Source: a virus
Virus genome (UHGV): UHGV-0280597
Direction: 5' to 3' (one strand)
Length of the DNA stretch: 16,951 nucleotides
A model generated the notes under the pieces. That model did no database searches. It was not told the DNA's origin and saw nothing but the letters and a program-made list of their open reading frames with translations. Positions within the stretch are counted from its first letter, which is position 1. Every line of letters starts with the position of its first letter. Shown piece after piece: positions 530-16,346 of this stretch. The translations under genes were made by a program, and so were the position numbers.

Positions 530-730
530 TTACCCATTGGCGCGGCTTAAGAGCTTATTTTTGAATTCACAATGGTCACGATATAACCATCTTGCTCGTC
601 CGTGGATAACTTTGGCTTTAGGCAGGTCGCCGGACTTAATCCGGTCATAGATGAAGGTCTTACCGAAGCCAGTATCAGCCATGATGAATTTCAAATCAAC
701 CAGTGAATCAGGTTGTAGTTCGTGTTGCAT
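530..730 (-). CDS. AlpA/Xis-like small DNA-binding protein (putative excisionase or regulator), 66 aa
   Basis: ORF-track ORF; small basic protein with a central segment (TGFGKTFIYDRIKSGDLPKAKVIHGRARW) resembling AlpA/Xis-family helix-turn-helix proteins from recall; located at the left end of the early-left operon. Confidence 0.5.
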   Translation of the reverse strand: MQHELQPDSLVDLKFIMADTGFGKTFIYDRIKSGDLPKAKVIHGRARWLYRDHCEFKNKLLSRANG

Positions 731-852
731 GAGTGCTATCTCCGAATATGGAATCGAACCTGCAAATCAGGCAATAAAAAGCCGCATTGATGCAGCAATG
801 GTAGGTCTGGATATCTTGAGAAATGAACAGGCCTCATCGAGTGTGAGGCGGG

Positions 853-1197
853 TTAGTCCTTGCGTAGCTCGCTGATTCTTCTGTAAGTCTCTGGTTCTTT
901 GTTCCCGTACGTCTTCATTTCAGACTTCAACAGAGCAACGAGTGAATCCCATTCGTTGAGGATTCCTTTGAATGCCGGAACGCGCTTTGCAACCTTGTCG
1001 AATGAATCTCTGATTTCTGGAATCTGCTCAACAAGTGCAACGCATCGCCGAAAGTCTGCTGCGTCATGGGGAGCGCCGAAGTGATGACCATAGATATTCT
1101 TTTTCAGGCCACATGCGATTGAGGCAAGAGTTGCGCTACTGATGCCGACATCGCCAGTTGATTGCCATTTCAAAACCTTCATAGCCAAATCTGACAT
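853..1197 (-). CDS. hypothetical protein, 114 aa
   Basis: ORF-track ORF with ATG at 1197 and a GGAG 7 nt upstream; sits immediately downstream of tandem minus-strand terminators; no family recognised. Confidence 0.45.
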   Translation of the reverse strand: MSDLAMKVLKWQSTGDVGISSATLASIACGLKKNIYGHHFGAPHDAADFRRCVALVEQIPEIRDSFDKVAKRVPAFKGILNEWDSLVALLKSEMKTYGNKEPETYRRISELRKD

Positions 1198-1207
1198 TTC
1201 TTGTCTC

Positions 1208-1235
1208 CATAAAACAAAACTCGCCGTAGCGAGTT
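1208..1235 (-). terminator. intrinsic terminator (leftward), first of a tandem pair
   Basis: Perfect stem ACTCGC/GCGAGT (1219-1224/1229-1234) with loop CGTA; on the minus strand the hairpin is followed by UUUUGUUUUAU. Confidence 0.5.
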
Positions 1236-1238
1236 CAG

Positions 1239-1266
1239 ATAAAAGAAAACCCGCACTCGGCGGGTT
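1239..1266 (-). terminator. intrinsic terminator (leftward), second of a tandem pair
   Basis: Perfect 7-bp stem AACCCGC/GCGGGTT (1248-1254/1260-1266) with loop ACTCG; on the minus strand followed by UUCUUUUAU. Confidence 0.55.
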
Positions 1267-1545
1267 CGCATTCGTTCAAATTGCGTTTACTTCTTGGCGT
1301 TCTGTTCATCCATATCGATATACCATGGGTTGCTTCCCTTGGGCATGTTTAACGACTGCTCGCGATAGTATCTGATGCGCTCCATGAAATACTCGCGTGA
1401 GTGCTCAGGTTGCTCTCATGATACCTGCTCAGTGATAACAGGTATGTTAAGGCGCTCTCTGTACTCCATGCCTGATGCTGCAAGGTCAACGTTTACCTTG
1501 TTCTGTTTTTCTTTCGATTTCTCGGCGATGTTATGCCTGACATTG

Positions 1546-1788
1546 TCAACCCGCCTCCTTCTGAACATAACGGTTATAAATCAGTCCCTGAGGGCCATAA
1601 GGAAGCGGGATGTGCAACTCCTCTGGTTCAGAAACTATCCATTCTCCGGCCATCTCCGCTGGAGAGGTAATGATAAGTTGTTTGCTAATAAAAGGACCAC
1701 TCCTCTCAACAACAAGCTTACCATCTTCATTAATAAAAGCTTGGATGTCAGGTGTGCTTCCACACTTGGTGATGCAGCGTTTGAACAT
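1546..1788 (-). CDS. hypothetical protein, 80 aa from the ATG at 1788
   Basis: ORF-track ORF 1546..1830 trimmed to the in-frame ATG at 1788, which is preceded by GGGGGGA (Shine-Dalgarno-like) and lies downstream of an extended -10 element; the ATG at 1830 would lie upstream of that -10. Confidence 0.45.
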   Translation of the reverse strand: MFKRCITKCGSTPDIQAFINEDGKLVVERSGPFISKQLIITSPAEMAGEWIVSEPEELHIPLPYGPQGLIYNRYVQKEAG

Positions 1789-1811
1789 TTTGTGTCCCCC
1801 CATTTTATGTA

Positions 1812-1850
1812 CGGGGTAATTATAACACATTGAAATATAGTAATATTTGA
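1812..1850 (-). promoter_or_regulatory. candidate leftward promoter with extended -10 (TGtTATAAT)
   Basis: Minus-strand TGTTATAAT (reverse complement of plus 1819-1827) in an AT-rich intergenic segment directly upstream of the 80-aa ORF; the -35 is weak. Confidence 0.3.
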
Positions 1851-1914
1851 CGTAGATTTCTTTTGATCTATAAGCGATTTTTTAATGCTTTTAAGTTATA
1901 AATACTTGTTTTCA

Positions 1915-2586
1915 TCACCCATCTTGCTGCGGTGCTACTATTGAAAAGTGCTCACACCCTTTAGCCCAAATAGTTTTGATAGTTGTCCAACTGACTGGAA
2001 CCTTGATTTCGATTCTCCCGCTACAGTCACAAGTTTCGCAATCATCATCACCAAAGCATTCCGGGCAGCTTATAAACGTAGTTTCTGAAAATTCACCGGA
2101 TAGCACACCCTTAGCGCCGTTCTCGGCTGTTAGTCTCTTCGGCACCATGACCCAACCATCCGGAATTACCGGAGAGTTGCCGGGTTCTTTAATGTGCAAG
2201 CGAGGCTCACCATCTTTTGGCTCAGGCCACTGGCGCTCCATGTTGATCTTCAATTTATCTTCCATAGCAGCGGTAATTTCAGCATCGCTGATGCCAGCAC
2301 GGCGCTGTGAATCCCACAACAGAAACTGCATATCAGCCCACTCGCTAAGATCGTCTGGTTCGGCTGCGGCTTCCAGTGCCTCTTTTGAGAGGTGTTTCAG
2401 TGGACCAATGGGGCCAACGCAGCCAAATGTGGAGTCAGACCATTTGGCATGCTCGTGGCGAATCTGTTCGCGTTCCAGTGATGCCAGTGCAATTCGTGCC
2501 AGTTCCATTTGTTCGCCACGAGTAAGCCCGTTTTCAAGCGGATTTTTAATGAATAATTCGATACGTTCTTTGGTAATAGTGGTCAT
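1915..2586 (-). CDS. hypothetical protein with C-terminal Cys cluster (possible zinc ribbon), 223 aa
   Basis: ORF-track ORF; AAGGTG 8 nt upstream of the ATG at 2586; C-terminal motif CPECFGDDDCETCDC; tentatively similar to phage DUF551-type proteins from recall only. Confidence 0.55.
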   Translation of the reverse strand: MTTITKERIELFIKNPLENGLTRGEQMELARIALASLEREQIRHEHAKWSDSTFGCVGPIGPLKHLSKEALEAAAEPDDLSEWADMQFLLWDSQRRAGISDAEITAAMEDKLKINMERQWPEPKDGEPRLHIKEPGNSPVIPDGWVMVPKRLTAENGAKGVLSGEFSETTFISCPECFGDDDCETCDCSGRIEIKVPVSWTTIKTIWAKGCEHFSIVAPQQDG

Positions 2587-2588
2587 AG

Positions 2589-2780
2589 CTATTTCACCTT
2601 AATCTCAACATTTCGCAGCTTTAGCTCTACTGGCAGGTCTGACTTTCCTGTTAATGCTAATGCGAGATTTTCTGGAGTAATGAGAGCAGTTATTGTTTTC
2701 CCCCTCGCCAGACGAATAATCATTCGTATCTCGCAATCGTCACATGCTCCCGGTCGAACAATTGATATTTGTCCATTCAT
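2589..2780 (-). CDS. hypothetical small protein, 63 aa
   Basis: In-frame ATG at 2780 inside ORF-track ORF 2589..2942, preceded by GGAGAG and placed 1 nt after the upstream gene's TGA; the longer 117-aa form would overlap the Ea22-like gene by about 160 nt. Confidence 0.4.
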   Translation of the reverse strand: MNGQISIVRPGACDDCEIRMIIRLARGKTITALITPENLALALTGKSDLPVELKLRNVEIKVK

Positions 2781-2781
2781 C

Positions 2782-3411
2782 TCACTCTCCTTTGATGCGA
2801 ATGCCAGCGGCGCGCTCGGCTTCACTTTGTTCCCAAAACCACTTGTGAAGCGCCATAAGCTTTTCGTCAATCGGTGCATATTTGCGATTAAAGTAGGCCT
2901 GAGCATCTTTCTCAGATTCGTCCGGTAATTCGCCAGGGCCAAACAGTGTGTTATAAATCCATGCCAGTCCGCTTTTAGCGTCGCCAGTCGATTGCCATTC
3001 GATAATGGCAGCTTGCATGACCAGAATGTTTTTCCCGATTAATAGGTCCAGTTCTTTGTACCGGTTGCGGATGTATGCATTCTCGCTTTGTAATTTTGCG
3101 TTGCGATTCTCTGCTGCTTCCAGCTCAACACGCAGCTTCCCTACCGTTAGCGCAATTTCCTCGTTCTCCTGGTCGCGGGATTTGATGTATTGCTGGTTCC
3201 TTTCCCGTTCATCCAGTAGTGCCAAAGCAATCTTTGGATTAAAGGCAGCAATAAATTCAGCGTTGTTTTTCAGAACGTGTTGCGCAATGGCCTGACTACT
3301 TAGTCGGACCTCATAACCTCGTGCGCCACGGTGTGGTTTATATGAGTCCCAGTCTCCCCACGTTGCTTTCTCTGCCACATCACGCAGTGCCTGATAGTTA
3401 ATTTCGCTCAC
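2782..3411 (-). CDS. Ead/Ea22-like protein, about 209 aa
   Basis: ORF-track ORF 2782..3432; likely start is the GTG at 3411 preceded by AAGGAGG with a 6-nt spacer; coiled-coil segment ([33 protein letters not shown]) recalls lambda Ea22-family proteins. Confidence 0.55.
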
Positions 3412-3575
3412 TGGTTGCCTCCTTTGCGCCACATCGCATTCAGATATCTGTTGTCATTAACAGAACCGAAACTATTTCTTTTAAGCAATTCCTCTCTCGA
3501 TGGCATTGGTTTTACGCGTTGGCGAATAATCATTTCTGCCGGAAGAATGCCGGGATTGTATGCAAGTCCTCTCAT
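3408..3575 (-). CDS. hypothetical small protein, 55 aa (below the ORF-track cutoff)
   Basis: Manual translation [55 protein letters not shown]; ATG at 3575 preceded by AGAGGAA; its stop overlaps the downstream GTG start (GTGA coupling). Confidence 0.3.
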
Positions 3576-3591
3576 GGTAAATTCCTCTTTG

Positions 3592-3906
3592 TTAATTTAT
3601 TCGTATGCCTGCTCTTTCTTCATCGAGTTTTTTTAGCTTGTATCGCATAGCTCTTACTGAATAAATTGAGCGGCAGGTTGCAATTGCTATTTCTTCTGCG
3701 GAGAACTTACCGAAAAGTGATACTTCGGCTCTTGTCCAGCGTCTTCCACGAAGTCGGCTAACAATGTCAGCGCCAATCCTTGTTGCTTTCGCCATAACTG
3801 CTTTTTCAGTCCTTTCCAGTTTTTCAGCGATAACTTCAACTGGCATTGTCGCCGCTACTTCGCGCAAGAAATCGACTTCCCATTTCTCCCATGGAGTCTT
3901 TTTCAT
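3592..3906 (-). CDS. hypothetical protein with two internal W-x-x-x-E-V-x-F repeats, 104 aa
   Basis: ORF-track ORF; repeat segments [10 protein letters not shown] and [11 protein letters not shown] suggest a duplicated helical (possibly DNA-binding) unit; no family assigned. Confidence 0.5.
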
Positions 3907-3917
3907 AGGCGATACCG

Positions 3918-4400
3918 TTATTTGATAAGAAGTGAAGGTTTCCCAACTTTGAGTTGAGCACCGGGGATATTTAATCCTGCTTTTAGTTGGTGCTTGATTG
4001 CCAACTTGTCGGCTTTAATTGTCGTTTCAAACTCAACGTATTCAGGAGGAAGGGCGCTTGAGTCGATGATTTCTACAGTTTCTGACGGTTTGCGGATTGT
4101 TACCTGGTGAATACCTGCTCTAATCTTTTTCTTGCCAACCATTTCAAGCGATGAGGCTATATATGCCATAATGCTATCAATCTTATTTTGAATTACTGCT
4201 GCTCGTTCATTCAGTGACTTTGCCTCGTCCTTGAGGCGTTCAGCATAACCAGATTCATTTTTAATAATGGCGAGAAGTTGCTCTATTTTATCGGTAAATT
4301 CTCCTTCCATGCCTTCTATTGTGTCAGCAATCATCTCTGGTTCTAAATCTGAATCCATCAATTTTGCGTATTCATTGGCTATTTCATATAGTTTGCTCAC
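3918..4400 (-). CDS. Siphovirus Gp157-like protein, about 160 aa
   Basis: ORF-track ORF 3918..4406; likely GTG start at 4400 preceded by GGAGGT; N-terminus (V/M)SKLYEIANEY and coiled-coil character resemble the Gp157 family, which often accompanies phage recombinases (recall only). Confidence 0.5.
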   Translation of the reverse strand: MSKLYEIANEYAKLMDSDLEPEMIADTIEGMEGEFTDKIEQLLAIIKNESGYAERLKDEAKSLNERAAVIQNKIDSIMAYIASSLEMVGKKKIRAGIHQVTIRKPSETVEIIDSSALPPEYVEFETTIKADKLAIKHQLKAGLNIPGAQLKVGKPSLLIK

Positions 4401-5286
4401 TGGCAACCTCCAGTTTCGCTTTGCATTCTATGTAAATGGCTTGTACGTTCTGCTGCAATTTCATTCCAGATGTCAGGCGATATGCTTCTGCAAAATATCG
4501 TTTCAAATCATCCATGTTTTCTGCCTGAGCCATTTCATCACAAAGAAGTTGTGCTTTTTCCATTATTTCCTGCTGGCGTTTCCGTTCATCTTCGCGGATA
4601 TCTTCCTCTGATTTGTGCGGCATAACTGGTTCCTGATGCATACCTTCATCTTCGTTAAGCAGGTGAATGGCATTATCCAGTCGCTGGGCTTTAGGCCAGT
4701 ATTTGCTGGCGCGTTTAACTATTGTTTTACGCGCCATCTCTTCCCAGAATGTCTTCCACGGTCCATTCTTTGCCTTGCTCGTTGCTTCCACAGCTTTAAT
4801 TTCTGCCAGACTCATTTCTTCAGTCAGGTAGTCACCATCTGCTGTTTTAACCGTGCAATAACCACCAACAATAGAGCCTCGCTCACCAAATGCGTTGTAT
4901 TTGTGGGTTGGCGCTGAATCAAGGCCGTTTGATTCATAGGTGTCGTTTGAGTACACCAGTTTACATTGCCCCCACTTAATTGATCCTGTCGACTGTGCAA
5001 GGTGAAGTAATCCCATATAGCTGATATCAAGGCAAACCATGCCGTCGCGCGGAACTAGATAAGCAAGTTTGCTGGCCGGGTTTAAGGTGATGCCGATCGC
5101 CGCAACATTGATGATGGCGTTCTGTGCGCTGGTTGGATTTGCCAGTGCCGTTTTAGCCAGGTAATCATTTTTCTGGAAATACTGAATTGCAAACTGGCTT
5201 TCCTTAGCCCATGTCACCGTCTGTTCAGTCAATGCTCCGCAGAATAACTGCTCCTGCTGTTTAACGAATTCAACGATATTGCTCAT
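4384..5286 (-). CDS. recT: RecT-family single-strand annealing recombinase, 300 aa
   Basis: ORF-track ORF; size and sequence resemble RecT/Red-beta-type annealases (recall); occupies the lambda bet position; ATGA overlap with the upstream gene. Confidence 0.8.
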   Translation of the reverse strand: MSNIVEFVKQQEQLFCGALTEQTVTWAKESQFAIQYFQKNDYLAKTALANPTSAQNAIINVAAIGITLNPASKLAYLVPRDGMVCLDISYMGLLHLAQSTGSIKWGQCKLVYSNDTYESNGLDSAPTHKYNAFGERGSIVGGYCTVKTADGDYLTEEMSLAEIKAVEATSKAKNGPWKTFWEEMARKTIVKRASKYWPKAQRLDNAIHLLNEDEGMHQEPVMPHKSEEDIREDERKRQQEIMEKAQLLCDEMAQAENMDDLKRYFAEAYRLTSGMKLQQNVQAIYIECKAKLEVASEQTI

Positions 5287-5594
5287 GCTGCTTCTCCATA
5301 AATGTGTCTGCGTTTGAATATTGCGAAGGCATATTCAGCCTTAACTCTTTCGGTTATTGCATCCCAGAACCATTCAGCGGCTTTTTCCTGATAGTCACAG
5401 TCATCATCTTCCAGCCAGTCGATAGCGTCCTTAGTGTGTTCATCTGGCTTATATGAGCGAAGCATTTCGCTTATTGGGTCGCAGCGTTTGCAGAGGCGAT
5501 CAACTTCACTGTTGATTCGTTCGTAATCTTCATCAGTAAAACTTGCGATGATTTGCGATATTTCACGCTTATCATTCAGAGTCAGAATCATCAT
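5283..5594 (-). CDS. hypothetical acidic protein in the Gam/Abc slot, 103 aa
   Basis: ORF-track ORF; translationally coupled to recT (ATGA overlap at 5283-5286); position corresponds to the RecBCD-inhibitor slot of lambdoid phages, but no sequence-based assignment. Confidence 0.5.
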   Translation of the reverse strand: MMILTLNDKREISQIIASFTDEDYERINSEVDRLCKRCDPISEMLRSYKPDEHTKDAIDWLEDDDCDYQEKAAEWFWDAITERVKAEYAFAIFKRRHIYGEAA

Positions 5595-5675
5595 CTTTCT
5601 CCTGTTCTTTGTGCTGATTGAGCATTTTGTTCATCTGACGAATGAATTCTTCGTCTGACCAGTTATCTGTAAAAC

Positions 5676-5846
5676 TCATGGGCGGCCTTGTTGTTTCAAA
5701 ATATCCCAAAGCTTTTCGAGCAAACTTTTCATTCTTGGTTGTTTAAAGTCTGCTCCGGTTAGAATGTTTTTTCTTGAATGCTGTACCGATAAAATCGGGT
5801 TGAAAGGGCGAACCGATGCCGCCCCTGCAATAGCGAACTGTTGCAT
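5676..5846 (-). CDS. cIII: CIII-like protein (putative FtsH inhibitor), 56 aa
   Basis: Not in the ORF track (under 60 aa); manual translation MQQFAIAGAASVRPFNPILSVQHSRKNILTGADFKQPRMKSLLEKLWDILKQQGRP; AAGGAG 6 nt upstream of the ATG at 5846; N-terminal MQ-x-AIAG and C-terminal amphipathic L-x-K-L-W-D-I-L-x-Q-x-G-x-P match my recollection of lambda/P22 CIII. Confidence 0.5.
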   Translation of the reverse strand: MQQFAIAGAASVRPFNPILSVQHSRKNILTGADFKQPRMKSLLEKLWDILKQQGRP

Positions 5847-5921
5847 AGGATGCTCCTTCTGTTTGATTGCATAACGAAAACGCCTCGAGTGAAGCGTTAT
5901 TGGTATGCGGTAAAGCCGCGC

Positions 5922-6290
5922 TCAGGCGGCTTTGATAGTCATATCATCTGAATCAAATATTCCAGATGTGTCGATATCGGTAATTCTTATTCCTTCGCTA
6001 CCATCCATTGGAGGCCATCCTTCCTGACCATTTCCATCATTCCAGTCGAACTCACACACAACACCATATGCATTTAAGTCGCTTGAAATTGCTATAAGCA
6101 GAGCATGTTGCGCTAGCATGATTAATACAGCATTTAATACAGAGCCGTGTTTTTTGAGTCTGTATTCAGAGTCTGACCAGAAATTATTAATCTGGTGAAG
6201 TTTTTCCTCTGTCATTACGTCATGGTCGATTTCAATTTCTATTGATGCTTTCCAGTCGTAATCAATGATGTATTTTTTGATGTTTGACAT
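5922..6290 (-). CDS. hypothetical acidic protein, 122 aa
   Basis: ORF-track ORF; start at 6290 just downstream of a strong minus-strand terminator; acidic C-terminal region (DIDTSGIFDSDDMTIKAA). Confidence 0.5.
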   Translation of the reverse strand: MSNIKKYIIDYDWKASIEIEIDHDVMTEEKLHQINNFWSDSEYRLKKHGSVLNAVLIMLAQHALLIAISSDLNAYGVVCEFDWNDGNGQEGWPPMDGSEGIRITDIDTSGIFDSDDMTIKAA

Positions 6291-6310
6291 CTGTTCATAT
6301 CCTCATAGAT

Positions 6311-6338
6311 AAAAAATTGCCCTCACATTGGAGGGCAA
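6311..6338 (-). terminator. intrinsic terminator (leftward)
   Basis: Perfect 8-bp stem TTGCCCTC/GAGGGCAA (6317-6324/6331-6338), 6-nt loop; on the minus strand followed by UUUUUU (plus 6311-6316 AAAAAA). Confidence 0.6.
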
Positions 6339-6485
6339 AGAAGATTTCCAATAATCAGAACAAGTCGGCTCCTGTTTAGTTACGAGCGACATTGCTCCGT
6401 GTATTCACTCGTTGGAATGAATACACAGTGCAGTGTTTATTCTGTTGTTTGTGCCAAAAATAAAGGCCGACTATGCGTCCTGAAA

Positions 6486-6851
6486 TTACTTAACCAATGA
6501 TGCTGCATATTCGATAAGGTAAAGCTTTGGAGCCAACCAAATTTTTAGCCAGTCGAAATAATTGAAGAAAACAACAATAGAAGTAATCGCTATTCCTGAT
6601 GTGAAAAGTATCGATAAAATAACAATATCCGCATCATCTCCTTTATTGCATGCCAAAATCATCAGATAAACACACGCTATAATCACCAATACACAGAGAG
6701 CCTGAATTCCAGCTGATGATACGGCGTGCCACATCAAAAGCTGATGGATGACATCAGGAATCTGTGCCTGGCTAAATGAAACAGCCGCGTCTATTCCATT
6801 GCTGGCTTTTTGCAGTAGTTCTACGAGAATCTTGTTTGCTTGTTCTTCCAT
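6486..6851 (-). CDS. hypothetical integral membrane protein (about 3 predicted TM helices), 121 aa
   Basis: ORF-track ORF; ATG at 6851 preceded by AAGGTG; hydrophobic segments ALCVLVIIACVYLMILA, IVILSILFTSGIAITSIVVFF; flanked by terminator-like hairpins on both sides; located in the sieB/ral neighbourhood next to N. Confidence 0.6.
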   Translation of the reverse strand: MEEQANKILVELLQKASNGIDAAVSFSQAQIPDVIHQLLMWHAVSSAGIQALCVLVIIACVYLMILACNKGDDADIVILSILFTSGIAITSIVVFFNYFDWLKIWLAPKLYLIEYAASLVK

Positions 6852-6890
6852 ATATCACCTTGATTGTAATAAGCATGAAATTATTTACGG

Positions 6891-6922
6891 CTAAAAAATA
6901 AAGGCCACCATCAGGCAGCCTT
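6891..6922 (-). terminator. terminator-like hairpin plus U-run (leftward), candidate tL1
   Basis: Stem AAGGC/GCCTT (6901-6905/6918-6922) with inner CC/GG pairs; on the minus strand followed by UAUUUUUU; overlaps the stop codon of the 83-aa ORF. Confidence 0.35.
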
Positions 6923-7162
6923 GTTGTAAATGTTGCAGGTATCAAGTAAGTAATTAGATGGAGCGCCATAAATTATGAATTCATCGTTTGTCGGGTCCAT
7001 CTCCATCTCTTGGCCTATTGCCATTCTTGCGTCAGTGTCATCAGCGGCGAAGCATAAAACAGCCCACGCACCCATTGTTTTAAAAAGAACTGCAATTGGC
7101 TGTGGTTTTACTGAATTTGCGTTAGCGCGAAAATCACAAATCGCACTTTCATGAAACTCCAT
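6911..7162 (-). CDS. hypothetical acidic protein, 83 aa (first gene downstream of N)
   Basis: ORF-track ORF; position equivalent to ral/early accessory genes of lambdoid phages; no family recognised. Confidence 0.5.
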   Translation of the reverse strand: MEFHESAICDFRANANSVKPQPIAVLFKTMGAWAVLCFAADDTDARMAIGQEMEMDPTNDEFIIYGAPSNYLLDTCNIYNKAA

Positions 7163-7170
7163 ATCTCACC

Positions 7171-7470
7171 TCAAATAAGTGGTTTGCTGCCTAATTTCAT
7201 TTTCTGGCGACCAACACAAGTCACACCCATTTCACTGCGTGGCTTGCGGTAGTAAATACGGTTCTGTTTACTCTCGACTTCTTCTGCCTTCTTGCAGCGA
7301 AGGCTTCCGAGTGATGCTGCTTTATCTGCTCTGACGCAACCAGAGAGCTTTAGCGCAATTTTTCGCGCCAGTCGCTGCTCTTGCATTGCCTGTTCACGTT
7401 GAGCCTGTCTGCGTGCTCTGCGGCGATTTCTGGCGTTATCGTCAGCCAGATATGTAATGACTACTGTCAT
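7171..7470 (-). CDS. N: N-like transcription antitermination protein, 99 aa
   Basis: ORF-track ORF; GGAGG 5 nt upstream of the ATG at 7470; N-terminal arginine-rich motif (NARNRRRARRQAQ); C-terminus RKPRSEMGVTCVGRQKMKLGSKPLI resembles the lambda N C-terminus (recall); nut sites found in both operons. Confidence 0.8.
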   Translation of the reverse strand: MTVVITYLADDNARNRRRARRQAQREQAMQEQRLARKIALKLSGCVRADKAASLGSLRCKKAEEVESKQNRIYYRKPRSEMGVTCVGRQKMKLGSKPLI

Positions 7471-7782
7471 GTTGACCTCCGATGAAACAACTTTGGAATT
7501 TTTTTATTACAAAGTTGTTTCCATCCCCGCCAATTAGACGGGGATGGAAGAGCATTTATGAGCCTTTATGGACTCTGCTCGATCAGTTCTATTTAATTAA
7601 TCTCTCAATTGAATGTAAGTATTCACATAAATCCTCCTACCTCTTGTGCAGCTTTCTTGAATATGGTGGCGGCTGCATAACGCCTATGGAATTGACTTTG
7701 GCGGTGACGCGCCGGGTGCTTATCTTCCGGTTGCCGTCGTGCAGCTGCACTTCACGTCACCCCAAAGCCAACTACTCTTTGG

Positions 7783-7825
7783 TTCCCGCATTTCGGCGGG
7801 ACAATCCCATCAATGTTAAAGAGCC
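7783..7825 (-). promoter_or_regulatory. nutL (boxA-like GGCTCTTTAACA plus boxB hairpin)
   Basis: Minus-strand reading GGCTCTTTAACA-12 nt-TCCCGCCGAAATGCGGGAA; the boxB hairpin is identical to the one at 9479-9497 downstream of cro. Confidence 0.7.
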
Positions 7826-7872
7826 TACCAATCTGTTCCGTTTGGCTACCAGCGTCCTGCTGATGGCTAAAG

Positions 7873-7956
7873 AATACTGTAGGTATTTTATTGTGTAAAT
7901 ACCCAAGGTATTTATTTTGGTGAAATAATGATAAGCAAATGAATACAAAGGATATT
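7873..7956 (-). promoter_or_regulatory. OL operator cluster (three AATAC-N5-GTATT sites) with candidate pL
   Basis: Palindromic sites at 7873-7887 (AATACtgtagGTATT), 7898-7912 (AATACccaagGTATT) and 7942-7956 (AATACaaaggATATT); same motif as OR; candidate leftward -35/-10 (TTTACA-17-TATTCT) overlaps the first two sites. Confidence 0.6.
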
Positions 7957-8042: not shown

Positions 8043-8411
8043 TTAGTCAGCGAAGGTTAAGACGAGAATTACCTTAATGATGTCTGCTACAACAGACACG
8101 GCCATAGATAAACCAAAGACGATCCAAGCCATAGAGATGTCTTCACTACCATCGTATAGAGTTCCGTAATCACTGGTGTAAGGCGTAAATGTCGCGCCTT
8201 GATACAACAAGTATAAGCTTGATCCATAGAGGATAAATGCAGATATCCCTTGTATTGCTATGATCACTAGAATCATGAAACGAGCTGATCTATGCGCCCA
8301 AGCCTGGCTTATTTTTTCTGATAGAGATTTCGCAATAAAAGCATGCGCTAAGCCGTAAATTGTCGAGATTGCCAACATCCCCAAAAAGCTTGCTATAGCG
8401 GTTCCAACCAT
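8043..8411 (-). CDS. hypothetical small integral membrane protein (about 3 TM helices) in the rexAB slot, about 122 aa
   Basis: ORF-track ORF 8043..8432 (TTG start); more likely ATG at 8411 preceded by AAGGGG; begins 17 nt after the cI stop on the same strand with no intervening terminator seen; strongly hydrophobic segments. Confidence 0.6.
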   Translation of the reverse strand: MVGTAIASFLGMLAISTIYGLAHAFIAKSLSEKISQAWAHRSARFMILVIIAIQGISAFILYGSSLYLLYQGATFTPYTSDYGTLYDGSEDISMAWIVFGLSMAVSVVADIIKVILVLTFAD

Positions 8412-8428
8412 AATCGCCCCTTGCGTGA

Positions 8429-9145
8429 TCAAACCAGCCTTAGTTTTGTCTCAATTGCAACGCCTATAATCTTGCAGTTTCCATTGATTGGCACGAGAGG
8501 CCATGCAGGGTTAAGTCCCTTGAGGTATTTATTTCCGCCGTCGATTATCAGCTTCTTGAATGTTGCTTCGTTAGAGTCAGAAAGTTTTGCTATGACCAAG
8601 CTGCCGTTGATCGCCTCCCTTCCGGTATCGAAAAGAACGAATGTTCCCTCTGGAATGCTTAACCCAACCGGTGCCGTCATTGAATCACCTTCCACTTTAA
8701 GCCAGAACGCATTACCTTGAATATGCGCGTCAGACTCAAGCCAAACATCTATGTCTTTAATGGTGTATGGTTCGCATGCTTCACACCACGAGCCAGCCTG
8801 GATACTGCTTAACACCGGATACCTCTTTCCTGCTCTGTATTCCCCTGCATACCTTACGTTGGCATCGCTCTTAAGGCTTTCTGCCTGTTCTGCAACCTTG
8901 GCAGCAATTGACTGGCTAAAATCAGCAATTGAGACTTGCAACAATCGTGCAAAACCAGATGCAACCTCAACGTTTAGCGCGTTTCTGCCATTAAGATAAT
9001 GCCCTACCGCTCCTTGGGTGATACCCAGTTCATCAGCGATTGAGTATTGGGTTATTCCCAATTCTTTCTTTTTTGACTCATACAAAGCCTTAAGCCGCTT
9101 AGCGTCTTCGAGCTGTTCTGTCGTCAGTGATTTTTTATTTTCCAT
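8429..9145 (-). CDS. cI: CI-like prophage repressor (HTH N-domain plus LexA/S24-type autocleavage C-domain), 238 aa
   Basis: ORF-track ORF; N-terminus MENKKSLTTEQLEDAKRLKALYESKKKELGITQ parallels lambda CI (recall); GDSM serine motif in the C-domain; divergent from cro across a 106-bp operator region; no Shine-Dalgarno before the ATG (leaderless-type start). Confidence 0.9.
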   Translation of the reverse strand: MENKKSLTTEQLEDAKRLKALYESKKKELGITQYSIADELGITQGAVGHYLNGRNALNVEVASGFARLLQVSIADFSQSIAAKVAEQAESLKSDANVRYAGEYRAGKRYPVLSSIQAGSWCEACEPYTIKDIDVWLESDAHIQGNAFWLKVEGDSMTAPVGLSIPEGTFVLFDTGREAINGSLVIAKLSDSNEATFKKLIIDGGNKYLKGLNPAWPLVPINGNCKIIGVAIETKLRLV

Positions 9146-9867: not shown

Positions 9868-10029
9868 ATGACAAAACGTCGTAAGAAATACCAGGAAAAA
9901 GAAGAGATTCGACACCCTGATTCACCTGAGGGATTAGTGGTAGCCGCAGCAAATAACAGGGCGTTCGCAGAGCGCCTTGTTGGTGTTTACAGACTAGCCA
10001 AAGCAGGAGTGAAGCATGGGCGTCGTTAA
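9868..10029 (+). CDS. hypothetical small basic protein, 53 aa (below the ORF-track cutoff)
   Basis: Manual translation MTKRRKKYQEKEEIRHPDSPEGLVVAAANNRAFAERLVGVYRLAKAGVKHGRR; GGAG 6 nt upstream of the ATG at 9868; fills the gap between cII and the replication gene. Confidence 0.3.
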   Translation: MTKRRKKYQEKEEIRHPDSPEGLVVAAANNRAFAERLVGVYRLAKAGVKHGRR

Positions 10030-10906
10030 GTTAGCTGATTACAGGCATAACCCTGTACAACATCAGGAGGCATCCAGTATGGGGTATGTCTCTATACACC
10101 GCCAGTTTATGGACAGCAGGCTCTATAAGGACTCTCAGGCAGTACATCTTTGGCTTCACTTAATCCTCAAGGCTAATCACGAATCTACTGTCGTCAATAC
10201 GGATATCGGTCCGATAACTGTTGATCGCGGTCAGATGATAACTGGACGCCCGTCGCTGGTCAGAGAAACATTCATCCCCGACAACAAAGTTCGGAGCTTA
10301 TTACGGACTTTTGAGTCGAAAGGTATGCTTAATATTTGCTCGATGGGGAAGAAATTTAGCCTGTTTACAATCGTTAAATATGACGATTTTCAGGCAAAAA
10401 ATTGTCCAACGGTTGTCCAACGGTTGTCCAACGCAAACACCAGTAATGGCGCGGCTCTCAGCGGAGATTGTCCAACGGTTGTCCAACGGTTGTCCATAAA
10501 CAATAATATAAATAATATCTCTAATACTGACGTATTAGAGAGTGCCACAGCAGACAAAAAGTCTGACAAGAAAAAACCTTCCGTTAGCTGTCAGGATGTT
10601 GTCGATGCTTACCACGAAATCCTTCCTGAAGCGCCAAGAATCCGCGCACTGAATGACAAGCGTAAAAACCAGATCCGAACGTTCTGGCGCAAAGCCGGAG
10701 TGATAACCCGACAGCTTGACGGGCATGGTTTCACGATGCAGGACTGGAGAAATTATTTGAGCTACGTAGGCGAAAATTGCCGATGGATGTTCGAAGAGCG
10801 CCCAAACCATCAGCGCGGAACCGTCTGGCACAAAAAGGGATTTGATTTCCTGCTTAACGATAATACCTACCTGAAAGTTCGTGAGGGTGAACACGATGAC
10901 CGATAA
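10016..10906 (+). CDS. replication initiator (O-like) with origin iterons inside the coding sequence
   Basis: ORF-track ORF; alternative start ATG 10079 has a stronger Shine-Dalgarno (AGGAGG, 8-nt spacer); the iterons translate in frame as CPTVVQRLSN; stop overlaps the helicase start. Confidence 0.75.
   Translation: MGVVKLADYRHNPVQHQEASSMGYVSIHRQFMDSRLYKDSQAVHLWLHLILKANHESTVVNTDIGPITVDRGQMITGRPSLVRETFIPDNKVRSLLRTFESKGMLNICSMGKKFSLFTIVKYDDFQAKNCPTVVQRLSNANTSNGAALSGDCPTVVQRLSINNNINNISNTDVLESATADKKSDKKKPSVSCQDVVDAYHEILPEAPRIRALNDKRKNQIRTFWRKAGVITRQLDGHGFTMQDWRNYLSYVGENCRWMFEERPNHQRGTVWHKKGFDFLLNDNTYLKVREGEHDDR
10402..10530. repeat. ori iterons: six 11-bp direct repeats (TTGTCCAACGG) in two blocks of three, followed by an AT-rich tract
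   Basis: Units at 10402-10412, 10413-10423, 10424-10434 and 10468-10478, 10479-10489, 10490-10500 (last degenerate), then ataaacaataatataaataatatctctaatactg; lambdoid ori architecture. Confidence 0.75.
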
Positions 10907-12332: not shown

Positions 12333-12412
12333 TGACCATCTACATCACTGAGCTTGTAACAGGCCTGCTGGTAATCGCAGGCCTTTTTATTTGGGGGAGA
12401 GGGAAGTCATGA
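12332..12412 (+). CDS. hypothetical 26-aa hydrophobic peptide
   Basis: Manual translation MTIYITELVTGLLVIAGLFIWGRGKS; AAGGAGG with 6-nt spacer before the ATG at 12332; start overlaps the helicase stop and its stop overlaps the ninB start. Confidence 0.35.
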   Translation: MTIYITELVTGLLVIAGLFIWGRGKS

Positions 12413-12849
12413 AAAAACTAACCTTTGAAATTCGATCTCCAGCACATCAGCAAAACGCTATTCACGCAGTACAGCAAATCCTTCCAGACCCAACCAAACC
12501 AATCGTAGTAACCATTCAGGAACGCAACCGCAGCTTAGACCAAAACAGGAAGCTATGGGCCTGCTTAGGTGACGTCTCTCGTCAGGTTGAATGGCATGGT
12601 CGCTGGCTGGATGCAGAAAGCTGGAAGTGTGTGTTTACCGCAGCATTAAAGCAGCAGGATGTTGTTCCTAACCTTGCCGGGAATGGCTTTGTGGTAATAG
12701 GCCAGTCAACCAGCAGGATGCGTGTAAGCGAATTTGCGGAGCTATTAGAGCTTATACAGGCATTCGGTACAGAGCGTGGCGTTAAGTGGTCAGACGAAGC
12801 GCGACTGGCTCTGGAGTGGAAAGCGAGATGGGGAGATCGGGCTGCATGA
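12409..12849 (+). CDS. ninB: NinB (Orf-family recombination protein), 146 aa
   Basis: ORF-track ORF 12391..12849 trimmed to the ATG at 12409; sequence MKKLTFEIRSPAHQQNAIHAVQQILPDP matches my recollection of lambda NinB closely. Confidence 0.9.
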   Translation: MKKLTFEIRSPAHQQNAIHAVQQILPDPTKPIVVTIQERNRSLDQNRKLWACLGDVSRQVEWHGRWLDAESWKCVFTAALKQQDVVPNLAGNGFVVIGQSTSRMRVSEFAELLELIQAFGTERGVKWSDEARLALEWKARWGDRAA

Positions 12850-13373
12850 CTATCAAATCAAATACGCCAGCACACGACAAGGACTGCTGGCAAACGCCGC
12901 TTTGGCTTTTTGATGCACTGGATATTGAGTTTGGATTCTGGCTGGATTCGGCAGCGAGCGACAAAAATGCTCTGTGTGCTCACTGGCTAACTGAGGCCGA
13001 CGACGCGCTCAATTCTGAGTGGGTAAGCCACGGTGCAATCTGGAATAACCCACCGTACAGCAATATCAGGCCGTGGGTGGAAAAAGCCGCTGAGCAGTGC
13101 ATACAACAGCGACAGACGGTAGTTATGCTTGTGCCAGAGGATATGTCAGTCGGATGGTTCAGCAAGGCTCTGGAGAGTGTCGACGAAGTTCGCATTATCA
13201 CTGATGGACGGATTAATTTTATCGAACCATCGACAGGGCTGGAGAAGAAGGGAAACAGCAAAGGCTCCATGCTGCTGATTTGGCGACCGTTCATCAGTCC
13301 TCGACGGATGTTTACTACCGTATCCAAAGCGGCATTGATGGCGATCGGGCAGGGCGTCAGGAGGGCGGCATGA
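12846..13373 (+). CDS. phage DNA N6-adenine methyltransferase (Dam-like), 175 aa
   Basis: ORF-track ORF 12786..13373 trimmed to the ATG at 12846 (ATGA overlap with ninB stop); NPPY catalytic motif ([10 protein letters not shown]) typical of N6-adenine methyltransferases. Confidence 0.8.
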
Positions 13374-13546
13374 GGCGACAGCGACGAAGTTTCACCGACA
13401 TCATCTGCGAAAACTGCAAATACCTTCCAACGAAACGCTCCAGAAATAAACGCAAGCCAATCCCAAAAGAATCTGACGTAAAAACCTTCAACTACACGGC
13501 TCACCTGTGGGATATCCGGTGGCTAAGACATCGTGCGAGGAAATGA
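13370..13546 (+). CDS. ninE: NinE, 58 aa
   Basis: In-frame ATG at 13370 within ORF-track ORF 13280..13546; [52 protein letters not shown] resembles lambda NinE (recall); ATGA overlap with the methylase stop. Confidence 0.8.
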
Positions 13547-13908
13547 CAATGGATTATTCACAGTTAAGTGATTTTGAAATTAACGTGGCGGTATTCGAAG
13601 CCATTCATAACGGATCACCGGATTACAAAGAAGGTGAGAATGGCGATATGGTGTTTGTCTCATTTGAGGGAGACATTGTAAACGGAGACGCAGTTGAAGT
13701 AGAAGTTGAGCGCGGATCCTTTAACCCATGCGCAAACCCAGCAGACTCATGGCCGATTATTGAAAAATACAGGATTAGCATTATCAATCTCGATGAAGAC
13801 GAGTGGGGTGCACGCGGTGTGGCCTACTGTAAATCTAAGCGAGCTATACATGAAAATCCCCTCCGCGCCGCCATGATTGTCTTTCTCATGATGCAGAGAA
13901 TCCAATAA
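13543..13908 (+). CDS. hypothetical nin-region protein, 121 aa
   Basis: ORF-track ORF 13507..13908 trimmed to the ATG at 13543 (overlaps ninE stop); acidic; conserved position in nin regions but family not confidently recognised. Confidence 0.6.
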
Positions 13909-14087
13909 TGCTTAGCCCATCCCAATCCATTCAATACCAGAAAGAAAGCGTCGAGCGGGCTTTAACGTGCGCTAATTGCGGTCAAAAGCTGCATGTGCTG
14001 GAAGTTCACGTGTGTGAGCACTGCTGTGCAGAACTGATGAGCGATCCGAATAGCTCAATGTACGAGGAAGAAGACGATGGTGATTAG
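13908..14087 (+). CDS. ninF: NinF, 59 aa (below the ORF-track cutoff)
   Basis: Manual translation [59 protein letters not shown] matches my recollection of lambda NinF; start overlaps the preceding stop. Confidence 0.75.
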   Translation: MLSPSQSIQYQKESVERALTCANCGQKLHVLEVHVCEHCCAELMSDPNSSMYEEEDDGD

Positions 14088-14469
14088 CCGATACGGACAA
14101 ATAACGTTTAAACATTTTCAAGACAATCCAACATGGGCTGCTGCGGCTGGATATGACTTTAATTATTTTGATTGTCTGTCAGTCGCATGTATAGCAACTA
14201 CCAATGTTGCTAACAACATAATCGATGAATTCTTGGATTTTCCAGACTATCAGGTCAGAGAGTTGCCTGCATTTTTTGTGAAAGTATCTGTTGCTACAGT
14301 TCTGTTATTTATTTTGTTATTCGCATATCCATTGCTTGCCGTATTTGTTTATGTGAGATGCAAACACTCACAAAAGAAATACAGCGGAGAGCATACCGAT
14401 ATTACCAGCCAAAATATGCGTGTGTGGTTGAGGAGATGCCAAGAGAAATGGGGGAGACGTCATGGCTAA
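14077..14469 (+). CDS. hypothetical single-pass membrane protein in an AT-rich insert, 130 aa
   Basis: ORF-track ORF; ATG overlaps the last codons of ninF; one hydrophobic helix (VSVATVLLFILLFAYPLLAVFVYV) followed by a basic tail; local AT-richness contrasts with the flanks. Confidence 0.45.
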   Translation: MVISRYGQITFKHFQDNPTWAAAAGYDFNYFDCLSVACIATTNVANNIIDEFLDFPDYQVRELPAFFVKVSVATVLLFILLFAYPLLAVFVYVRCKHSQKKYSGEHTDITSQNMRVWLRRCQEKWGRRHG

Positions 14470-14752
14470 CCTACGCAAAGAAGCACGCGGCAGAGAATGC
14501 CAGGTTCGTATTTACGGCATATGCAATGGCAATCCTGAAACTACAGTTCTGGCACATTACCGGATGGCTGGAATTTGCGGAACGGGAATGAAACCTGACG
14601 ACCTGATCGGCGCATGGGCTTGTAGCGCGTGTCACGATGAAATCGACCGCCGCACCCATAATCTCGACAACAAAGACGCCAGGCTTTACCACCTCGAAGG
14701 CGTGATCAGGACGCAGGCGATACTGCTGAAGGAGGGGAAGATTAAGCCATGA
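14462..14752 (+). CDS. ybcO: YbcO-like protein (DLP12-type nin-region protein, putative nuclease), 96 aa
   Basis: ORF-track ORF; GGGGGAG upstream of the ATG; MANLRKEARGRECQVRI...CSACHDEIDRR resembles E. coli DLP12 YbcO (recall). Confidence 0.75.
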   Translation: MANLRKEARGRECQVRIYGICNGNPETTVLAHYRMAGICGTGMKPDDLIGAWACSACHDEIDRRTHNLDNKDARLYHLEGVIRTQAILLKEGKIKP

Positions 14753-15111
14753 ACGAATATCAGTTTGTGCTTCCATACCCGCCGTCGGTGAATACCTACT
14801 GGCGAAGACGGGGAAGCCAATATTACATAAGCGATAAAGGCCAGAAATACCGAAAAGACGTTCAGCAAATCATCCGCCAACTCAAGTTAGACATCTTCAC
14901 CAAATCACGACTCCGCATCAAAGTCATCGCAGACGTTCCAGACTCCCGCCGCCGCGACCTCGATAACATCCTGAAAGGTTTACTCGACTCCCTTATCCAC
15001 GCCGGATTTGCGGAAGACGACGAGCAATTCGATGACATTCGCGTAATTCGTGGTGTGAAAGTACCAGGCGGACGGCTTGGAATAAAAATCACCGAACTGG
15101 AGAACGCATGA
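14749..15111 (+). CDS. rusA: RusA-family Holliday junction resolvase, 120 aa
   Basis: ORF-track ORF; PYPPSVNTYWRRRG...DVPDSRRRDLDNILKGLLDSL matches RusA catalytic-core motifs (recall); ATGA overlap with ybcO. Confidence 0.85.
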   Translation: MNEYQFVLPYPPSVNTYWRRRGSQYYISDKGQKYRKDVQQIIRQLKLDIFTKSRLRIKVIADVPDSRRRDLDNILKGLLDSLIHAGFAEDDEQFDDIRVIRGVKVPGGRLGIKITELENA

Positions 15112-15296
15112 ACGCCACAATTCAAACGATACCAGAGCTTCTTATCCAGACACGAGGCAATCAGACCGAAGTGGCGAGGATGCTTTCCTGCGCAAGAGGA
15201 ACAGTGCTCAAGTACAACCGAGACAGCAAAGGCGAGCGTCATGTAATAGTTAACGGCGTCCTGATGGTCAAACAGGGCAAGAGGGGAAGACGATGA
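15108..15296 (+). CDS. ninH: NinH-like small DNA-binding protein, 62 aa
   Basis: ORF-track ORF; GNQTEVARMLSCARGTVLKYNRDSKGERHVIVNGVLMV resembles lambda NinH (recall); overlaps the rusA stop. Confidence 0.75.
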   Translation: MNATIQTIPELLIQTRGNQTEVARMLSCARGTVLKYNRDSKGERHVIVNGVLMVKQGKRGRR

Positions 15297-15916
15297 GACT
15301 CGAAAGCGTAGCTAAATTTCATTCGCCAAAAAGCCCGATGATGAGCGACTCACCACGGGCCACGGCTTCTGACTCTCTTTCCGGTACTGATGTGATGGCT
15401 GCTATGGGGATGGCGCAATCACAAGCCGGATTTGGAATGGCTGCATTCTGCGGTAAGCATGAACTCAGCCAGAACGACAAACAAAAGGCTATCAACTATC
15501 TGATGCAATATGCACACAAGGTATCGGGGAAATACCGTGGTGTGGCAAAGCTCGAAGGAAATACTAAGGCAAAGGTACTGCAAGTGCTCGCAACATTCGC
15601 TTATGCGGATTATTGCCGTAGTGCCGCGACGCCGGGCGCAAGATGCAGAGATTGCCACGGTACAGGCCGTGCGGTTGATATTGCCAAAACAGAGCAGTGG
15701 GGGAGAGTTGTTGAGAAAGAGTGCGGAAGATGCAAAGGTGTCGGCTATTCAAGAATGCCAGCAAGCGCCGCATATCGCGCTGTAACGATGCTAATCCCAA
15801 ACCTTACTCAACCCACCTGGTCACGCACTGTTAAGCCGCTGTATGACGCTCTGGTGGTGCAATGCCACAAAGAAGAGTCAATCGCAGACAACATTTTGAA
15901 TGCGGTCACACGTTAA
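15293..15916 (+). CDS. Q: Q late-gene antiterminator, 207 aa
   Basis: ORF-track ORF; sequence MRLESVAKFHSPKSPMMSDSPRATASDS...CRDCHGTGR...CGRCKGVG matches my recollection of lambda Q very closely; followed by a pR'-like promoter and terminator. Confidence 0.9.
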   Translation: MRLESVAKFHSPKSPMMSDSPRATASDSLSGTDVMAAMGMAQSQAGFGMAAFCGKHELSQNDKQKAINYLMQYAHKVSGKYRGVAKLEGNTKAKVLQVLATFAYADYCRSAATPGARCRDCHGTGRAVDIAKTEQWGRVVEKECGRCKGVGYSRMPASAAYRAVTMLIPNLTQPTWSRTVKPLYDALVVQCHKEESIADNILNAVTR

Positions 15917-16190: not shown

Positions 16191-16265
16191 GGGTCAGTCG
16201 TATAAAGGTCATTACGGAAGGCTGTTAACCTTCTTATCGTGGTTCGAGTCCACGCTGTCCCGCCA
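16191..16265 (+). tRNA. tRNA-like gene, anticodon GTT (Asn), 75 nt with encoded CCA
   Basis: Manual fold: acceptor GGGTCAG/CTGTCCC (one U-U mismatch), D-arm GTAT/TTAC (one mismatch), anticodon stem GAAGG/CCTTC with loop CTGTTAA, T-arm CGTGG-TTCGAGT-CCACG, discriminator G, CCA. Confidence 0.5.
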
Positions 16266-16270
16266 AATAT

Positions 16271-16346
16271 GCTGGTTTAGCTCCAATGGTAGAGCAGTCG
16301 CCTTGTAAGCGAATGGGTAGCGGTTCAAGTCCGTTAACCAGCACCA
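16271..16346 (+). tRNA. tRNA-like gene, anticodon TGT (Thr), 76 nt with encoded CCA
   Basis: Manual fold: perfect 7-bp acceptor GCTGGTT/AACCAGC, D-arm GCTC-CAATGGTA-GAGC, anticodon stem GTCGC/GCGAA (one mismatch) with loop CTTGTAA, T-arm AGCGG-TTCAAGT-CCGTT, discriminator A, CCA. Confidence 0.6.

Follow-up and report, generated by a model that had tools for sequence, protein, structure and literature searches.

An HK140-type recombination module in virus genome UHGV-0280597: a RecT annealase beside Gp157 and a candidate Gam-like protein

The recombination (Rec) modules of 325 lambdoid phages have been surveyed by Zheng, Casjens, Davidson, Amundsen, and Smith (Genome Res 2025, PMC12315714). 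According to this survey, a nuclease is missing in 84 of 246 lambdoid Rec modules, P22 being the classic case. An 'anti-RecBCD + annealase' class, with P22 as its prototype, comprises 46 phages including HK140, whose module is described as a strand-annealing protein of type 4 (SAP-4) and a 'MuGam' anti-RecBCD protein with neither a nuclease nor an SSB. The main text credits HK140 with one anti-RecBCD protein, lists only HK639 with two, and explicitly places the shuffling of partner domains outside the scope of the paper. Here, we describe the Rec module found at positions 3918-5594 of UHGV-0280597, a viral sequence of 16,951 nucleotides (the window, which denotes the whole stretch analyzed). 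This interval holds three overlapping minus-strand genes, which encode an acidic protein of 102/103 residues (w103), a RecT-family annealase, and a Sipho_Gp157 protein (Gp157). The window represents an Escherichia coli lambdoid (pro)phage with a mosaic genome, and its module is an HK140-type Rec module, that is, an already catalogued and common lambdoid design for single-strand annealing without a phage exonuclease. Our additions are predictions only, namely a Gam fold assigned to the w103 family by modeling and a joint exchange of RecT tail and partner gene suggested by sequence comparison.

Organization and completeness of the module

Bases 3500-6300 of the window are approximately 93% identical at the DNA level to phages HK140, mEpX1, Gally, Kapi1, and others, the Rec modules of HK140, mEpX1, and Gally having the same genes in the same order, and 188 complete E. 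coli genomes contain at least 80% of this segment. Furthermore, a Gp157 scan of viral contigs yielded 80 related IMG/VR loci, which are near-identical E. coli loci usable for judging invariance. Since they resemble the window so closely, they indicate the stability of the block and do not constitute independent evidence. The order w35 > w103 > RecT > Gp157 > w104 > DUF2737 is complete in 77 of these 80 loci, apart from DUF2737 missing in two, and BLASTP detected in the 80 loci no homologue of lambda Exo, RecE, the DUF3799 nuclease, Gam, or Abc2. As in the P22 functional class, an annealase is present and a nuclease and an SSB are absent from the contiguous module. The anti-RecBCD component would be Gp157, of MuGam type by a weak match, and w103, by its predicted Gam fold. 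The original prediction had presented the locus as a possibly 'non-canonical annealase system', a description that has to be abandoned in view of the HK140-type modules catalogued in PMC12315714. As a system, the module is therefore of little importance, exonuclease-less annealase modules being documented and common and this exact type being in the literature. A decayed module is ruled out because none of the ORFs is interrupted and plaque-forming phages carry this block as well.

Starting from cI, the minus-strand early-left operon extends to the left, and the early-right operon extends to the right (Table 1). From pL, the gene order is cIII, w35, w103, recT, gp157, w104, and DUF2737, with overlaps or gaps of no more than about 16 nt. 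The w103 stop and the recT start lie within a common ATGA at 5283-5286, so that the translational coupling is real. As its homologues are 102 residues long, w103 probably starts at the second ATG (5591), and gp157 likely starts at GTG 4400, located behind a GGAGG, as its homologues have 160 residues. With this GTG as start, gp157 has 17 nt in common with the end of recT, and w104 begins 11 nt past the gp157 stop. In the family alignment, almost all w103-family members end in E-[AV]-A, as does the GamL of locus L090 (4825-5112). This conserved end is probably due to the next gene, that of the recombinase, whose Shine-Dalgarno sequence and ATGA start/stop overlap lie there, and it suggests that the whole w103 family has kept the translational coupling.

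The layout parallels that of P22 (arf-erf-abc1-abc2) as well as that of lambda (gam-bet-exo). As in P22, an annealase without a phage exonuclease has small accessory genes on both sides, including one for an Abc1-family protein of phrog_323 and a tiny acidic ORF at the position of Arf. On the other hand, the P22 annealase is Erf and not RecT, its anti-RecBCD protein Abc2, which modifies RecBCD, is absent from the window module, and P22 lacks both a Gp157/MuGam-like and a Gam-fold protein. Lambda Red and the SAP-4 + Exo modules (P13374 and loci L108-L118; phi80 is cited as such a module in PMC12315714) share with the window three slots, for an inhibitor, an annealase, and a partner, slot 1 being filled by Gam, GamL, or w103. 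While their slot 3 holds a YqaJ/lambda Exo nuclease and their annealase carries a Redbeta-type Exo-binding C-terminal domain, the window has Gp157 in slot 3 and an unrelated tail on its annealase. The gp9 (E8)-Gam pair of Mu likewise associates an Abc1/D5-like small helix-turn-helix (HTH) protein with a Gam-type end-protection protein, but with the gene order reversed and without an annealase; Mu Gam (PF07352, phrog_491) and Gp157 (PF05565, phrog_253) are at best distant relatives. Finally, the Sipho_Gp157 proteins of Firmicutes phages (Sfi21 orf157 type) belong to the same Pfam family and are also encoded beside a phage annealase (PMC8093625), yet upstream of erf-ssb or sak4, whereas the gp157 of the window lies downstream of a recT with a dedicated tail.

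To examine the lack of an exonuclease, Pfam and PHROGs were searched with every minus-strand ORF at 530-7470, from the excisionase gene (530-730) to N (7171-7470), and NCBIfam was searched with the ten largest as well. No PD-(D/E)xK, YqaJ, RecE, DnaQ, or HNH domain was found in these ORFs. Only two of them reach an Exo-like size, encoding the Ead/Ea22 protein (216 residues) and a dATP/dGTP pyrophosphohydrolase (223 residues), and searches of PDB sequences with both proteins gave no nuclease-like match. The early-left operon thus contains no adjacent YqaJ/lambda Exo, RecE, or DUF3799 PD-(D/E)xK gene of the kind seen in two-component recombinases such as lambda Red and RecET. The only nuclease-family genes of the window are those for YbcO and RusA in the nin region, neither being an end-resecting exonuclease. 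An exonuclease gene beyond the left end of the window was considered and rejected. Indeed, bases 1-530 hold no long ORF, and in a related prophage of E. coli NC22 the host csc genes abut the position equivalent to window base 1. The window thus appears, by comparison with NC22, to start at the prophage/host junction, and the early-left operon is therefore complete within it. The original prediction had stated that this operon has no RecE or lambda-Exo-sized nuclease ORF, had proposed profile searches for nuclease folds, and had named an exonuclease gene just outside the window as a find that would speak against it; the clean domain scans of all the ORFs bear out the statement, and no such outside gene was found. 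The junction at base 1 also means that the integrase gene is not adjacent to xis, an arrangement that prophage KplE1 presumably shares. The window contains no Chi site, but 0.37 would be expected by chance, which makes this uninformative.

The RecT tail and its proposed partner gene

The annealase had been predicted to be of the RecT family, and this assignment is upheld by PF03837 (E 2.6e-33, 115.7 bits for a cut-off of 24), by TIGR00616 (76.8 bits for a cut-off of 52.65), and by a match to the solved Listeria RecT 7ub2 (E 7e-5). It is not an equivalog of the Rac RecT, to which it is 29% identical, as NF007351 gives 90.9 bits for a cut-off of 296. Its core is 54-77% identical to the cores of exonuclease-paired RecTs (SAP-4 + Exo), with a value of about 72% for the core alone in the initial comparison with such RecTs. 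When a phage collection was searched with RecT by tblastn, two types of relatives emerged, those matching over the full length and those matching over residues 1-215 only. In the former, as in Aeromonas phage 4_L372X and Vibrio phage 1.247.A, recT is followed by a PF05565 Gp157 gene, and in the latter, as in P13374 and Vibrio phage 1.119.O, by a gene for a YqaJ/lambda Exo-type nuclease.

This association was surveyed with one genome per bacterial species, the loci being classified by HMMs built here, which gave 23 intact RecTs of this type. The window-type tail is present in 14 of the 23, all 14 having Gp157 encoded immediately downstream and no exonuclease, whereas the nine without this tail are all followed immediately by a lambda Exo/YqaJ-type nuclease gene and have no Gp157 (Fisher's exact p = 1.2e-6, uncorrected for relatedness). 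The tail-bearing loci include two short contaminant-like contigs and two copies within one genome. In agreement with this partition, the tail HMM matches 14/14 Gp157-linked RecTs and 0/9 exonuclease-linked ones, and Gp157 always lies immediately downstream of the tail-bearing RecT. The lambda Redbeta C-terminal domain, which has been crystallized bound to lambda Exo and which also binds SSB (PMC6393309), is clearly homologous to the tails of the exonuclease-linked RecTs (E 1e-34 to 5e-11). The window RecT tail matches none of these Redbeta-type tails. Furthermore, tail distances track Gp157 distances with r 0.80, as against 0.57 for the core, and in 23/23 loci the boundary of the swap is located at the core/tail domain border of RecT and not at the gene border.

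The comparison indicates a swap on one conserved annealing core, in which another tail together with Gp157 has taken the place of the Exo-docking domain together with Exo. The simplest reading of this pattern is that the tail would dock RecT on Gp157, and the co-swap of tail and Gp157 offers new indirect support for a reliance of RecT on Gp157 as a partner. The exchange of tail and partner on a single RecT core constitutes a natural experiment on the matching of annealases with their partners and predicts a specific RecT-Gp157 interface. A separate case is locus L119 (Escherichia sp. ESNIH1, 3989-4759), where RecT is cut to 256 residues and has no tail, Gp157 is encoded 116 nt downstream, and a lambda-type Gam is encoded upstream; this recT is probably a frameshifted copy in an otherwise intact module.

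Candidate end-protection and anti-RecBCD proteins

Gp157 is matched by PF05565 with E 4e-36 (124.8 bits for a cut-off of 28.6) over profile positions 1-162 of 162. It had been described as a Gp157-like coiled-coil protein on the side where an exonuclease is usually encoded. The family assignment stands, while the coiled coil covers the N-terminal two thirds only: the AlphaFold 2 model (pLDDT 81) has a helix at residues 21-88 and a small beta-beta-beta-alpha-beta-beta domain at residues 92-159. In PHROGs, Gp157 corresponds to phrog_253, 'Mu Gam-like end protection', and PMC12315714 similarly treats it as a Mu Gam-type end-protection, anti-RecBCD protein and not as an unknown partner. The match to the Mu Gam profile PF07352 reaches 17.4 bits, below the cut-off of 28.3, with E 0.0046, and is collinear over positions 29-147 of 149. 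A weak PF07352 match is also seen in 7 of 36 Gp157 homologues, and hhalign comparisons of Gp157 with Mu Gam, made with single sequences and with enlarged profiles, give E 0.03-0.05 over the C-terminal beta domain, where the conserved residues Gly96, Arg103, Pro105, Ser106, and Asp113 of Gp157 align with Mu Gam. Sequence and profile searches of PDB chains with Gp157 gave no match. The relationship between Gp157 and Mu Gam suggested by these alignments is weak but consistent, and Gp157 is probably a Mu Gam-like protein that binds and protects DNA ends.

With a pI of 4.59 and a net charge of -10, w103 resembles GamS in both size and charge (102 residues and -10 for w103, 98 residues and -10 for GamS). 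It matches no Pfam or NCBIfam family and only phrog_3486 (function unknown) in PHROGs. This family is small, with about 48 clusters at 50% identity; an exhaustive HMMER search with w103 retrieved only 48 cluster representatives, nearly all of about 100 residues and acidic. The hhalign comparison of the w103 profile gives E 0.0012 with the Gam alignment and 0.0021 with the Gam+GamL alignment, as against 0.05-0.29 for control profiles. The match with Gam spans 24-27 columns, is collinear and at the same relative position, and is centered on a common DDDx[DE][FY]QE motif. The predicted model of w103 adopts the GamS/Gam fold, Gam being its best structural match.

The genomic context points in the same direction. 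Like Gam, w103 is an acidic protein of about 100 residues whose gene opens the Rec module. Among the more distant RecT-Gp157 modules, a lambda-type Gam (phage Dewey, L088 from Citrobacter, and others) or GamL (L090) is encoded by the gene overlapping the recT start. The w103 slot is filled by a PF06064 Gam in Dewey, L088, L097, L112, L113, and L119, or by a GamL-type protein in L090 (PF28165) and, by sequence inspection, in L100/L101 and L116. Furthermore, w103 homologues head four core types, namely RecT + Gp157, RecT + Exo (L111), Rac-type RecE + RecT (L154), and the DUF3799 exonuclease (phage SEN22); this is the behavior of Gam and supports w103 as Gam-like. The earlier view of an unassigned acidic 103-residue protein in the Gam/Abc slot, coupled to recT, is thus supported by the PF06064 and PF28165 proteins found there in relatives, by the ATGA overlap, and by its own Gam-fold model. 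Altogether, we consider it rather probable that w103 is a RecBCD inhibitor. As HK140 is credited with a single anti-RecBCD protein, the 103-residue protein was not recognized as Gam-like in the main text of PMC12315714.

Two observations concern w103 and its homologues. P0159 and P0173, long eukaryotic-looking saposin-repeat proteins, each give five matches to w103 residues 13-67, with summed E values down to 1.6e-13. A relationship of w103 to saposin repeats was judged spurious, the cysteines not being conserved in the w103 family, and these matches were judged to be a compositional or helical-pattern coincidence. In the Salmonella phage SEN22 (L004, 2577-4589), the flanks are kept, with homologues of the 103-residue and 104-residue proteins and DUF2737, and a DUF3799 PD-(D/E)xK nuclease and a 189-residue protein (phrog_11517) replace RecT and Gp157 in a clean cassette swap. 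SEN22 is listed without an anti-RecBCD protein in PMC12315714.

We favor, as reasonably likely, a mechanism in which ends are protected both by an inhibitor of Gam fold and by an end binder resembling Mu Gam, with RecT tethered by its tail and annealing single strands derived from the host or from replication. In this scheme, w103, a predicted dimeric acidic Gam-fold protein, would block the DNA-binding site of host RecBCD, and Gp157, as a Mu Gam/Ku-like dimer, would bind the double-strand ends of the phage and shield them from exonucleases. The C-terminal tail of RecT would dock on Gp157 at these ends in parallel with the Redbeta C-terminal domain on lambda Exo, as the domain/partner co-swap suggests. 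RecT would then anneal single-stranded DNA not made by the phage, produced by host enzymes other than RecBCD (e.g., RecQ/RecJ) or present at lagging-strand gaps or rolling-circle tails, while w104, an Abc1-like and presumably DNA-binding protein, and w35, possibly Arf-like, would act as accessory factors as in P22. A reliance on host nucleases for resection is plausible. The complete proposal is more demanding and we put it forward only tentatively, as a possibility below even odds: Gp157 would be an end binder in the docking role of Exo and would be bound by the RecT tail, so that the annealase is delivered to protected ends in an 'exonuclease-free two-component recombinase' while the host carries out resection; among RecBCD inhibitors with a Gam fold, w103 would represent a third family by sequence, heading at least four core types.

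Several points weigh against this mechanism. HMMER detects no similarity between w103 and Gam, either with Pfam at E up to 0.1 or in a profile search of PDB sequences, which did not return Gam, and hhalign gives no match between w103 and GamL-type proteins. By sequence inspection, the N-terminal helix motif NAYLxQDRIEAQxW, common to lambda Gam and the GamL-type proteins, is absent from w103; in Gam, the N-terminal helix plugs the single-strand channel of RecB (PMC5218532). The co-inheritance of tail and Gp157 could be plain physical linkage, the tail-coding DNA adjoining gp157, and the surveyed RecT loci are not phylogenetically independent. Moreover, if w103 and Gp157 fully blocked RecBCD and the ends, the source of single-stranded DNA would be left unexplained. 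As to linkage, the break always falls at the domain border, which linkage does not explain.

As one alternative, RecT could act alone on fork gaps and rolling-circle tails, with Gp157 having a separate task (end protection, a replication-linked function, or counter-defence) and co-occurring with RecT through linkage only. RecT-family proteins by themselves suffice for oligonucleotide recombineering, and adjacency can produce a correlation between tail and Gp157. The Gp157 genes of Firmicutes phages adjoin unrelated annealases (Erf, Sak4), which also suggests a generic role (PMC8093625). We nevertheless regard this alternative as fairly unlikely, for the swap falls at the core/tail border in all 23 loci and replaces a domain known to dock a partner, and in Escherichia, Aeromonas, and Vibrio phages most loci have recT and gp157 overlapping or directly adjoining. 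Alternatively, w103 or w104 might modify RecBCD so that the host enzyme resects the ends and feeds RecT, as Abc2 does for Erf in P22. The gene order parallel to arf-erf-abc1-abc2, the presence of w104 in the PHROG of Abc1 with an Abc1 homologue in its place at L105, and the missing plug motif of w103, which may thus bind RecBCD differently, are all compatible with such a hijack, and exonuclease-less modules with an anti-RecBCD gene form a recognized class in PMC12315714. It is unlikely, however, given that neither the window nor the 80 related loci encode an Abc2 homologue, that the best structural match of w103 is a full inhibitor, and that the function of Abc1 itself is given as not known in PMC12315714.

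Finally, Gp157 might be a cryptic nuclease functionally replacing lambda Exo, whose exact place it occupies in sister modules. The order helix, beta-beta-beta, alpha, beta of its model loosely recalls a PD-(D/E)xK core, and His98, Asp113, Glu123, and Lys129 are invariant. This seems highly improbable, since among 36 homologues no nuclease family match was obtained at any threshold apart from a chance-level Exo5 (E 0.062), no D...(D/E)xK spacing is present, the beta domain has only about 70 residues, and the conserved residues shared with Mu Gam connect Gp157 to a DNA-end binder and not to a nuclease.

The phrog_3486 family, which has no Pfam or NCBIfam model, provides a testable candidate RecBCD inhibitor. 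If w103 does inhibit RecBCD, HK140-type phages would go from 'one' to 'two' anti-RecBCD genes and SEN22-type modules from 'none' to 'one' in the scheme relating Rec modules and Chi sites of PMC12315714, and the family would provide a further tool for recombineering and for studies of the defence systems guarding RecBCD.

Accessory and neighboring genes

Table 1. Features of the Rec module and of other regions of the window, with positions, strands, and assignments
Feature	Position	Strand	Assignment or predicted role
TorI-type excisionase	530-730		First gene
DUF2737 protein	3408-3575	-	PF10930 E 7e-30; last of the invariant six-gene block, directly after w104 in 78/80 loci
w104, 104-residue basic protein	3592-3906	-	Two HTH-like repeats; P22 Abc1/Mu gp9-like accessory protein
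Sipho_Gp157	3918-4406	-	160 residues from GTG 4400; exonuclease slot
RecT, 300 residues	4384-5286	-	PF03837
RecT C-terminal tail, residues 216-300 + stop	4384-4641	-	Proposed Gp157-docking domain replacing the Redbeta-type Exo-binding domain
RecT core, residues 1-215	4642-5286	-	Predicted single-strand annealing domain; PF03837 over residues 31-214
w103, 102/103-residue acidic protein	5283-5594	-	Gene 1 of the Rec module; predicted lambda-Gam fold, candidate RecBCD inhibitor
w35, 35-residue acidic ORF (MSFTDNWSDEEFIRQ...)	5572-5679	-	Between cIII and w103
cI-type repressor	8429-9145		
NinB/Orf recombination mediator	12391-12849	+	PF05772 E 1.3e-54; nin region, outside the early-left module, part of the phage recombination toolkit
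Dam-type N6-adenine methyltransferase	12786-13373	+	Overlaps ninB
YbcO putative nuclease	14462-14752	+	PF07102 E 2.8e-44; phrog_131 'HNH endonuclease'
RusA Holliday-junction resolvase	14749-15111	+	PF05866 E 1.1e-16

On the downstream side of the three-gene core, w104 matches phrog_323 (E 2.8e-20), as do P22 Abc1 (E 1.3e-23) and Mu gp9 (E 5e-29). BLASTP links w104 to Mu gp9 (E 5e-5) and finds no similarity between w104 and P22 Abc1, so that the latter link exists at the PHROG-profile level only; both proteins are basic, with a pI of 10.0 for w104 and 10.3 for Abc1. In other genomes, the slot after Gp157 or Exo holds a w104 or Abc1 homologue, and in Enterobacter adelaidei (L105, 5386-5694) a true Abc1 homologue replaces w104. 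In Mu, gp9/E8 is located directly upstream of gam. Three unrelated phage types thus have an Abc1-like gene next to one for end protection or against RecBCD. The loci concerned are window 3592-3906, L091 5482-6325, and L105 5386-5694. BLASTP found w103 not to be similar to Arf and gave an insignificant match to Abc2 (E 2.9).

On the upstream side, w35 overlaps both the cIII stop, within an ATGA, and the w103 start. It is conserved in 77/80 related loci and corresponds to phrog_17766 and phrog_2123. With P22 Arf, encoded at the equivalent position, w35 has in common an SDEEFI motif (pairwise E 0.005), and it may be an Arf-like recombination cofactor.

Outside the early-left operon, the nin region (12391-15111, plus strand) carries the genes of NinB/Orf, the N6-adenine methyltransferase, NinX, NinF, YbcO, and RusA. 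The phage thereby has junction-processing and RecFOR-bypass functions despite its exonuclease-less early-left module. The O gene (10016-10906) contains, at 10390-10507 on the plus strand, an 11-nt direct repeat (TTGTCCAACGG) that occurs in two clusters of three copies separated by 66 nt; the copies are probably the iterons of the origin to which the O protein binds. Genes for tRNA-Asn (GTT) and tRNA-Thr (TGT) occupy 16191-16346 on the plus strand, downstream of the gene for the Q antiterminator (15293-15916). Finally, the gene immediately following cI on its strand encodes a 129-residue multi-pass membrane protein (phrog_6534; 8043-8432, minus strand), and a 138-residue ORF without a family (7482-7898, plus strand) lies next to N on the opposite strand; in their positions, these two ORFs are similar to the exclusion genes rex and sieB of lambda and P22.

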